From contig DNGJ01000424.1 of NCBI GenBank assembly GCA_003486305.1, positions 5,760 to 21,648 on the forward strand: a stretch of DNA of 15,889 bases, read 5' to 3'. Below are positions 4,410 to 5,695 of this stretch, one piece after another. The DNA comes from Cyanobacteria bacterium UBA11371 (lineage in GTDB: Bacteria; Cyanobacteriota; Cyanobacteriia; Cyanobacteriales; Aerosakkonemataceae). The notes below the pieces were generated by a model. It was not told the DNA's origin. It saw only the letters and a program-made list of their open reading frames with translations, and did no database searches. The first letter of the stretch is position 1. Every line of letters starts with the position of its first letter. The position numbers and the translations under genes are program-made.

Positions 4410-5234
4410 ATGAACCTCCCTGCCCTTGAAAAAGATTCGCCGCGTCCCTTTTTAAAATGGGCGGGTGGTAAAAGTAGACTAATTTCACAATATCATCGCT
4501 ATTTTCCCAAGGATTTTAATACTTACTACGAACCGTTTTTAGGTGGAGGTGCTGTTTTTTTTCATCTCCAACATCACCCGGCTGTTTTGAGCGATATTAA
4601 TCCAGAATTGATTAATGTTTATCGCTGCGTCCGGGATAAAGTTAAAAAGTTAATTGCACTTTTGGCAGAACATCAACGAAATCATAATAAAGATTACTAT
4701 TATTATATCCGTTCTAATGGTGATGGCACACAAGTTGAAAAAGCTGCTCGTTTTATTTATTTAAATAAAACTTGCTTTAATGGATTATATCGAGAAAACT
4801 CCAAAGGTGAATTTAACGTACCTATCGGCAAATACAACAATCCTAAAATTTGCGACCCCGATCTGCTTTATTCAGCAAGCGCCGCACTGAAGTCTGCTGA
4901 AATTAAGGTGAGAAGTTTTGACAAGGTGCTGAAGTATGCTAAAAAAGATGATTTTGTCTACTTCGACCCACCTTACTATCCGCTAAGTAGCACCAGCAAT
5001 TTCACAGCATATAATCGCGATTTCTTTAGTAAAGAAGACCAAATTAAGCTCAGGGATGTCTTTGCAGAACTTGCCAGTCGTGGAGTAAAAGTCATGCTGT
5101 CTAATTCAGATTGTGAGTTGATTCGAGAGCTATATAGGAATTTTGATATTCGTGAAATTTCAGCATCAAGAGCGATTAATTCTAATGGAAATAAGCGAGG
5201 TAAAATTGCTGAATTGTTAGTTACTTGTAATTAG
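4410..5234 (+). CDS. dam: DNA adenine (N6) methyltransferase, Dam family (alpha class); very probably GATC-specific.
   Basis: 274 aa, colinear with E. coli Dam. PFLKWAGGKSRL (compare AFLKWAGGKYPL). EPFLGGGAVFF. FIYLNKTCFNGLYRENSKGEFNVPIGKYNNP (compare [31 protein letters not shown]). DPPYYPLSSTSNFTAYN (compare DPPYAPLSATANFTAYH). SNSD (compare SNHD). AINSNGNKRGKIAELL (compare SISSNGGTRKKVDELL). The gene is AT-rich and HIP1-free. Confidence 0.85.
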   Translation: MNLPALEKDSPRPFLKWAGGKSRLISQYHRYFPKDFNTYYEPFLGGGAVFFHLQHHPAVLSDINPELINVYRCVRDKVKKLIALLAEHQRNHNKDYYYYIRSNGDGTQVEKAARFIYLNKTCFNGLYRENSKGEFNVPIGKYNNPKICDPDLLYSASAALKSAEIKVRSFDKVLKYAKKDDFVYFDPPYYPLSSTSNFTAYNRDFFSKEDQIKLRDVFAELASRGVKVMLSNSDCELIRELYRNFDIREISASRAINSNGNKRGKIAELLVTCN

Positions 5235-5695
5235 AGATTGTTGTTCGCCCAGGTGAAAAAACTAGACAGATTATGGACTGCCAGTAGATTTTGATTTGTT
5301 TTAACCTGTTCGTTTAACCAATCAATAGCGCCTTGCTTGATCCCCGTCCCATCTATCAACACAATTGCAGGAGCGGGATAAAGCTGAATATTCAAGTTTA
5401 GGTAAGGCAGCTTTTCATCCACAGAACCACTTCTTTGCTGCGATTTACACTCAATAATTAACCCTTTATTGTATAAAGGAGAGCCAATAATATAAAAATC
5501 TACATGGAGATCTGTACCATAAATTCCAGTTCCTACTTCAACCTGTTTTGAATATCGTTTTGGTCGATTAGTGGAGTTTAAAAGTTGTTCCAAACGCTGC
5601 TTTCTAAGTAGACTATCTCCTACCAGGACATATCCACGTTTGTACAATGCCCGTTCTACGGCGTTCTCTAAAACTGCCCTAGCGCTTTGAGACAT
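5231..5695 (-). CDS. Small (154 aa) PD-(D/E)XK-fold nuclease, a candidate restriction endonuclease partner of the adjacent Dam-family methyltransferase.
   Basis: Convergent with dam, and the two stop codons share the 4 bp TTAG. Putative catalytic motifs: Glu in the N-terminal helix (LENAVERAL), Asp in GTDLHVDFYII, and the E-x-K signature in LIIECKSQ. Same low-GC, HIP1-free composition as dam. Calling it a REase is inference from fold motifs plus gene context. Confidence 0.45.
   Translation of the reverse strand: MSQSARAVLENAVERALYKRGYVLVGDSLLRKQRLEQLLNSTNRPKRYSKQVEVGTGIYGTDLHVDFYIIGSPLYNKGLIIECKSQQRSGSVDEKLPYLNLNIQLYPAPAIVLIDGTGIKQGAIDWLNEQVKTNQNLLAVHNLSSFFTWANNNL

Follow-up and report, generated by a model that had tools for sequence, protein, structure and literature searches.

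DmtA (all0061), which has been reported as a GATC methylase, and M.Ssp6803III (slr1803) are described in cyanobacteria as solitary enzymes (PMC4390886, PMC6105098), and Dam has been reported to be essential in both Anabaena PCC 7120 and Synechocystis PCC 6803 (PMC6105098). A survey based on REBASE lists genes for a "putative GATC-specific restriction enzyme" beside dmtA in 16 of 97 cyanobacterial genomes, made up of ten adjacent genes and six decayed copies (Elhai, 2015; PMC4390886), so the idea of a GATC restriction-modification (R-M) module at this gene is already in print. Among the GATC endonucleases, mutagenesis has placed the MboI subfamily in the PD-(D/E)XK superfamily (PMC2441816). Here we describe a Dam-family methylase gene and a convergent gene for a small nuclease on a 15,889-nucleotide stretch of contig DNGJ01000424.1 from Cyanobacteria bacterium UBA11371; this whole stretch is called the window below. 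Our comparisons suggest that the pair is a type II GATC R-M module of the DpnII kind with a minimal endonuclease, a reading to which we give a probability of roughly 60%. The nuclease family is widespread and functionally uncharacterised, and the variant architecture of the module was partly anticipated by the REBASE-based survey.

A convergent pair of methylase and nuclease genes

The original prediction for this locus described a methylase gene whose stop codon is overlapped by 4 bp by a convergent partner, and the sequence bears this out. The open reading frame (ORF) at 4410-5234 on the plus strand encodes 274 residues and that at 5231-5695 on the minus strand encodes 154 residues. The four shared bases, TTAG at 5231-5234, read as the stop codon TAG on the plus strand and as TAA on the minus strand. 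Gene ends that abut or overlap tail-to-tail recur in most of 76 orthologous loci. The 154-residue protein is found with identical sequence and with the same gene arrangement on 21 contigs from many samples.

The 274-residue protein matches Pfam family PF02086 (MethyltransfD12) at 4.5e-71 and scores 308.8 bits against the TIGR00571 "dam" model, well above the cut-off of 114.85. Its DPPY motif lies at residues 186-189 (bases 4965-4976). These results agree with the earlier assignment of the protein to the Dam family, and we annotate it as an alpha-class (D12) N6-adenine DNA methyltransferase and as an ortholog of cyanobacterial DmtA and M.Ssp6803III. With the A. variabilis ortholog of DmtA it shares 59% identity. 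The model for E. coli Dam equivalogs, NF008152, gave 204.9 bits, which is below its cut-off of 441, and the best match in the PDB was DpnM (2dpm, 1.3e-76), with E. coli Dam at 1e-48. Judged from these matches, the methylase is a Dam-family enzyme, and among solved relatives it is closer to DpnM, which belongs to the DpnII system, than to E. coli Dam. It also matches the PADLOC models MTase_II (2.3e-106) and oMTase (8e-96).

Relationship of the small nuclease to DpnII and MboI

The 154-residue protein matches Pfam family PF20472 (PDDEXK_11) at 2e-43 with 148 bits (cut-off 23.7). The match covers residues 3-153 and, in the 145-position profile, positions 3-144. When 1.84 billion representatives were searched with a profile, 1219 clusters had E <= 1e-3, and most were of 130-190 residues. 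The predicted catalytic core of the window protein is encoded at 5411-5500 on the minus strand and contains D66 (5498-5500), E82-C-K84 (5444-5452) and G90-S-V-D-E-K95 (5411-5428). In 129 diverse relatives, D66, E82, K84, Q86, G90, S91, D93, E94, K95, G116, G118 and W126 are each at least 87% conserved. The fractions for the triad are 0.91 for D66, 0.92 for E82 and 0.90 for K84, and all three residues are present in the window protein. An AlphaFold2 model made with 23 homologs had a predicted local distance difference test (pLDDT) score of 91.1 and a predicted template modelling (pTM) score of 0.88. The protein has the alpha/beta restriction-endonuclease-like fold and the D...(D/E)-x-K pattern of the PD-(D/E)XK superfamily. 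The hallmarks of this superfamily had been read from the letters in the original prediction, which named beforehand two outcomes that would speak against a nuclease, namely a non-nuclease fold and a triad that is not conserved. Neither was found. Sequence comparison with PDB chains returned nothing meaningful for the small nuclease, Foldseek against the PDB and BFVD gave weak, generic nuclease matches, and NCBIfam holds no model for it.

Because some PF20472 members have weak DpnII matches in Pfam, we collected DpnII-family plasmid genes for comparison. The reference consisted of seven annotated plasmid restriction genes, including that of L. lactis pSRQ700; the tblastn query used for finding them was an approximate DpnII sequence and the matches are real annotated records. 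DpnII (PF04556) was the commonest non-self Pfam match, occurring in 28 of 94 PF20472 members with a best E of 1.9e-6, and was followed by Mrr_cat (14 of 94). Alignment of the profile of 94 diverse PF20472 proteins with that of the seven DpnII-family enzymes by hhalign gave a probability of 94.8% and an E of 5e-8 over 129 columns. In this alignment, window residues 1-145 correspond to columns 149-285 of the DpnII profile, which has 299 columns. An independent alignment with 129 sequences gave 95.4%. A shallow alignment of 23 close sequences gave 69.6%, and the higher figure needed the more diverse alignment. Reciprocal hidden Markov model searches between the two families resulted in matches in the same register.

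The catalytic core aligns with the invariant D210, E225-x-N227 and G233-S234 of the DpnII family, and both groups have an R/N-x-x-G-x-x-x-E helix, the catalytic D, E-x-(K/N), G-S and D-G-x-G. By these data, the small nuclease is a half-size relative of DpnII and MboI that is homologous to their C-terminal catalytic half. The original prediction had considered an unrecognised family of small restriction enzymes. This idea has to be given up, as the protein belongs to a Pfam family and is a remote homolog of the DpnII/MboI catalytic half. The window protein itself had no PF04556 match at E <= 1 and so does not reach the Pfam threshold for DpnII, and with 154 residues it does not have the full-length, two-part DpnII architecture of about 280 residues. 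No solved DpnII-family structure was found by sequence search.

The likeness to the DpnII, MboI and LlaDCHI systems extends to the partner, which is a Dam-family methylase with DpnM as its best solved relative, and to the PD-(D/E)XK assignment and occasional methylase fusions on both sides. There are also clear differences. DpnII-family enzymes are 275-307 residues long and have E-x-N, whereas PF20472 nucleases have 154-160 residues and E-x-K. The DpnII, LlaDCHI and staphylococcal systems each contain two methylase genes, compared to one in the window pair, and DpnII-type systems are plasmid-borne M-M-R operons. By contrast, the genes in the window are convergent, chromosomal and syntenic with those of related genomes.

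Linkage of the nuclease to adenine methylases

The original prediction linked the nuclease to Dam, and this linkage recurs in unrelated contexts. We recovered 80 genome loci through the nuclease, and in 76 of these a convergent Dam gene adjoins the nuclease gene, usually abutting it. The partnership occurs in genomes of at least 260 species. Other arrangements are found outside these loci. A 42%-identical relative directly follows a D12 methylase in a co-directional arrangement within a DndB/PC4 small-ORF context, and an Alicyclobacillus plasmid carries a Dam-then-nuclease operon beside an Abi gene. On viral contigs with a PF20472 relative, an N6-adenine methylase lies within 400 bp in 42 of 70 cases. 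These 42 are 21 D12 methylases, 19 members of PF05869, an unrelated class also called "Dam", and 2 of the MT-A70 type. All nine D12 partners tested passed the TIGR00571 "dam" cut-off. Fusion proteins of a D12 methylase with PF20472 and of HTH_3 with PF20472 also exist. By tblastn, a relative of the nuclease was found in just one plasmid record and in none from phages.

A single nuclease family that occurs with three adenine-methylase families, whether convergent, tandem or fused, is the signature expected when methylation of the same site must counter the nuclease. As in type II R-M systems, the methylase and endonuclease genes are adjacent and their linkage is kept across contexts.

The spacing between the two genes varies in a few places. 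A 497-aa ORF (6487-7980, minus strand) is inserted between nuclease and Dam in Rivularia sp. MS3 (L033), and several Microcoleus loci have a spacer of 0.1-0.9 kb. Another locus (L057, 6001-9117) has a 5'-truncated PF20472 gene followed by a co-directional D12 methylase that is 47% identical to the window Dam and then by a 376-aa protein with DUF6996, DUF6997 and DUF7226. A different R-M-like module may have displaced the original one at this locus.

Distribution and loss of the nuclease

When loci were sampled through Dam itself, 42 were of cyanobacterial type. Only about 12 of these contained the nuclease, one of them frameshifted, and about 70% were without it. Both frameshifted and truncated copies of the nuclease are present in our dataset. 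In A. variabilis ATCC 29413, the order RbfA-DUF751-Dam is kept and there is no nuclease or remnant of one next to dam. Judged from these loci, the pattern of nuclease loss is typical of restriction (R) genes. The A. variabilis gene lies in the same DUF751-RbfA neighbourhood as Dam in 73 of 86 loci. DmtA and M.Ssp6803III differ from the window methylase in being described as solitary, while the latter has a nuclease partner.

We also considered whether the nuclease could be the cause of Dam essentiality in PCC 7120 and PCC 6803, and rejected this. Table S4 of Elhai (2015) gives no GATC restriction gene for either strain (PMC4390886). A. variabilis is a close relative of PCC 7120 and has no nuclease next to dam, so the nuclease does not explain why Dam is essential.

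The genes listed by Elhai have numbers adjacent to dmtA, such as Osc7112-3107/3108, Tery_3905/3906 and Cal6303-1303/1304, and in every Microcoleus locus that we fetched a PF20472 gene occupies the position adjacent to dmtA. Some of the listed genes are about 760 bp, the size of DpnII, compared to 480 bp for the gene family studied here, and their membership in PF20472 could not be confirmed. Conversely, we found intact pairs in Oscillatoria PCC 10802 (L002) and Mastigocladopsis repens (L081), for which the table has no restriction gene.

If the nuclease cleaves GATC, this site might be avoided by its carriers. We compared the observed/expected ratio of GATC, with HIP1 masked, in the window and 114 related loci; this covers about 10 kb per genome and the statistics ignore phylogeny. 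The median was 0.73 in loci with the nuclease versus 0.90 in loci with Dam only (p = 8e-4), and the ratio in the window was 0.50. This depletion around carriers hints at restriction avoidance.

History of the locus

The pair occupies a locus that is conserved across Nostocales and Oscillatoriales. DUF751 is on the Dam side in 73 of the 86 loci, and RbfA then follows in 51. On the nuclease side, HetZ-Sua5 is found in 40 loci, from Nostocales, and a metallophosphoesterase gene as in the window in 29, from Oscillatoriales. The pairwise identities of Dam, the nuclease and RbfA are correlated (r 0.53-0.72).

The earlier claim that the dam/nuclease DNA is richer in AT than its flanks holds, as the guanine-plus-cytosine (GC) content is 0.379 in 4410-5695 compared to 0.470 in the rest of the window. 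This is a general property of the pair, which has a GC content of 0.364 versus 0.433 in the flanks across loci and is lower than its flanks in 61 of 62 orthologous loci. Across loci, the density of HIP1 is 0.23 per kb in the pair and 0.83 per kb in the flanks, a 3.7-fold drop, and we calculated that base composition alone predicts a drop of about 2.2-fold. The window contains 21 HIP1 sites (GCGATCGC). The gap in HIP1 sites at 4032-6810 that had been taken as a sign of acquisition does exist, with no site within it. When 21 sites were placed at random, the largest gap reached this size of 2.8 kb in 36% of cases (P = 0.36), so we rejected the gap as stand-alone evidence of acquisition.

Between the window and its relatives Microseira (L001) and UBA11372 (L003), dam has a synonymous divergence (dS) of 0.90-0.99 and the nuclease gene one of 1.41-1.46, compared to 0.19-0.36 for seven flanking genes. 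The cassette is thus 4-6 times as divergent as its flanks at synonymous sites. The two relatives differ from each other by a nuclease dS of only 0.12; their dam comparison was left out because of a frame error. The nuclease coding sequence is 72% identical in DNA between the window and these two genomes. By contrast, the approximately 50 bp upstream of it (5696-5745, minus strand) are near-invariant in the three genomes, and the divergence therefore begins at the nuclease gene. This upstream region is a probable promoter and 5' untranslated region and probably also marks one edge of a replaced cassette. These data suggest that the window cassette is a divergent allele that was swapped into an old locus by recombination. 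The original prediction of a recent horizontal acquisition fits this in part. A freshly acquired islet is contradicted by the conserved synteny and by the low GC content and HIP1 depletion of the pair in nearly all loci, whereas the excess of synonymous substitutions supports a divergent allele.

The neighbourhood of the cassette shows other differences among these genomes. A gene for a protein with NYN and OST-HTH/LOTUS domains (2673-3818, plus strand; GC content 0.41) lies beside the dam cassette in the window. Microseira lacks it, and the amine-oxidase and NIL-ferredoxin genes abut there, which represents an insertion/deletion difference. Between the metallophosphoesterase gene and the nuclease upstream region, both relatives have an extra 0.7-0.9 kb (approximately 5230-5950 in L001 and 5060-5950 in L003) that is absent in the window.

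Possible functions of the pair

In a DpnII-type module, the Dam-family enzyme would methylate adenine in GATC sites of the host, on both DNA strands, and the 154-residue protein would be a minimal PD-(D/E)XK endonuclease in which D66, E82 and K84, with the GSVDEK helix, support Mg2+-dependent hydrolysis. The predicted homodimer would cut unmethylated GATC and be blocked by N6-methyladenine. Convergent transcription and overlapping stop codons would couple expression of the two genes; no controller protein is present. The pair would be an old resident of one cyanobacterial locus where repeated loss of the nuclease gave rise to an "orphan" DmtA, and the window cassette would be a divergent allele exchanged by recombination inside this conserved locus. 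We infer the GATC specificity of both enzymes from DmtA orthology and DpnII homology. Sensitivity of the nuclease to methylation, double-strand cleavage by a dimer and activity of the window copy are likewise predictions from sequence. The proposal of a type II R-M module made at the outset is supported by the DpnII homology and by the methylase linkage, and the part of it that placed the nuclease in a family unrelated to the known enzymes is not.

Several observations weigh against a restriction module. The small nuclease is without the entire N-terminal half of DpnII (about 148 residues), and no separately encoded version of this domain was found near the pair in the window or in 82 loci. 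The stability of the pair in one locus across two orders is unusual for a selfish R-M system. In PADLOC-DB the small nuclease had no match to a restriction-enzyme or other defence model at E <= 1, its relatives are publicly named "hypothetical protein" or "PD-(D/E)XK nuclease superfamily protein", and in the literature that we searched we found no biochemical datum for PF20472 members and no paper that names the family. The window nuclease has a 5-residue in-frame deletion within the conserved N-terminal motif GGRANxxGxxLE, which corresponds to the invariant motif RKNRSGxxxE of DpnII. Lastly, intact nucleases with all catalytic motifs persist where the adjacent Dam is gone. In Calothrix rhizosoleniae SC01 (L062, 81-924) Dam is entirely deleted, and in the lichen-associated Nostoc metagenome-assembled genome P3034 bin 5 (L079, 5346-6142) only pieces of its N and C termini are left. 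A restriction enzyme that is truly Dam-sensitive would be lethal in these two unless the same genomes encode a second GATC methylase; second GATC methylases are present in some cyanobacteria (PMC4390886).

The deletion raises the question of whether the window nuclease is an attenuated or inactive relic of a family of restriction enzymes, which would make Dam a de facto orphan in the source genome. The deletion takes out the Asn and a nearly invariant Gly of a motif that aligns with invariant DpnII residues, and decay of the nuclease is common at this locus. Against this, a 90%-identical relative (P0002) has the same in-frame deletion, the catalytic residues are all intact, the structural model is confident, and the identical protein occurs on 21 contigs. 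The ratio of nonsynonymous to synonymous divergence (omega) since the split of the window and P0002 is 0.29 for the nuclease, equal to that of Dam, and is 0.14-0.17 in comparisons with L001 and L003. These ratios (omega 0.14-0.29) mean that purifying selection acts on both genes, and we consider a relic unlikely. A role for the nuclease that has nothing to do with methylation, for instance in recombination or repair, would turn the adjacency to dam into inherited synteny. This is highly improbable. It could account for the 28 of 70 viral relatives that have no methylase within 400 bp, but one ancestral arrangement cannot explain convergent, tandem and fused linkage to three methylase families in unrelated taxa, and the profile similarity is specific to DpnII and not to repair nucleases.

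MutH is a single-domain PD-(D/E)XK relative of Sau3AI and is functionally tied to Dam methylation. The small nuclease resembles it in being small, in having one PD-(D/E)XK domain and in its kinship with a larger GATC restriction enzyme, and could be a domesticated GATC nickase. As a monomeric half-enzyme, it would nick hemimethylated GATC on the unmethylated strand, for strand discrimination in mismatch repair or for other housekeeping. Such a role would suit the vertical stability of the pair with its correlated identities, the retention of the DpnII catalytic half alone, and the persistence of intact nucleases without an adjacent Dam, which is easier to understand for a regulated nickase. 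It would also provide the undiscovered MutH analog of cyanobacteria postulated by Elhai (PMC4390886). We think it improbable. A host repair role is implausible for a family that, with Dam, occurs next to Abi on a plasmid and in many viral contigs, and a nuclease that is absent from most cyanobacterial Dam loci, including that of A. variabilis, and is not listed for PCC 7120 or PCC 6803 is no core repair factor. The allele replacement that the cassette shows is typical of R-M genes. E. coli mutH is unlinked to dam, whereas the PF20472 gene is dam-linked, patchily distributed and found on plasmids and phages. There is also no detected sequence similarity to MutH, as no Pfam match to its family was obtained for the window protein or for sets of 23 and 94 relatives. 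It is more doubtful again that PF20472 in filamentous cyanobacteria is specifically a vertically inherited nickase from the DpnII lineage that acts as a functional MutH analog and reads Dam hemimethylation in order to discriminate strands or maintain the GATC-containing HIP1 repeats; if this were true, the missing analog would be supplied.

The R-M reading, which we prefer, would have several implications if the nuclease actively cleaves GATC. As a minimal version of DpnII/MboI, it would define the half that is sufficient for recognition and cleavage. PvuII is one of the smallest type II enzymes, and its size is comparable to that of a nuclease of about 155-160 residues. Genomes of at least 260 species would have a cognate nuclease beside a Dam that the literature treats as an orphan, and an origin of DmtA from an R-M module with repeated loss of the R gene would be suggested. 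A Dam-sensitive nuclease would go unseen with DNA from dam+ E. coli, while PCR products, synthetic DNA and DNA from dam- hosts would be blocked in transformation of carrier strains.

Neighbouring features of the window

Structured elements had been noted on both sides of the pair and they do exist, although they are not conserved parts of the module. A nested palindrome at 4268-4386 lies in the divergent spacer between the NIL-ferredoxin gene and dam, at the other edge of the cassette, and is probably a small inserted palindromic element. Within it are a perfect 20+20 palindrome at 4303-4342 and two outer arms, one at 4268-4280 and the other at 4374-4386. No exact copy of the 20+20 palindrome turned up among 247 loci, and the corresponding spacer of L001 and L003 does not contain it. 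A hairpin with 21-nt arms at 5748-5810, just 3' of the metallophosphoesterase gene, is present in L003 and not in L001. Both elements are lineage-specific, and we therefore rejected them as operators or conserved parts of the module.

Two observations concern genes further away. In longest-ORF calls, the metallophosphoesterase gene (5839-7008, minus strand) and a proline-rich ORF (6853-8013, plus strand) overlap head-to-head by about 150 bp. Gene calls on identical contigs place the metallophosphoesterase start later, giving a protein of 298 residues, and this overlap is then gone. At the start of the window, the ORF at 19-1050 on the plus strand has a match to the Pfam domain MVP_shoulder (major vault protein shoulder) at 1.5e-55, which is an unusual domain for a cyanobacterium, and this ORF probably extends upstream beyond the edge of the window.

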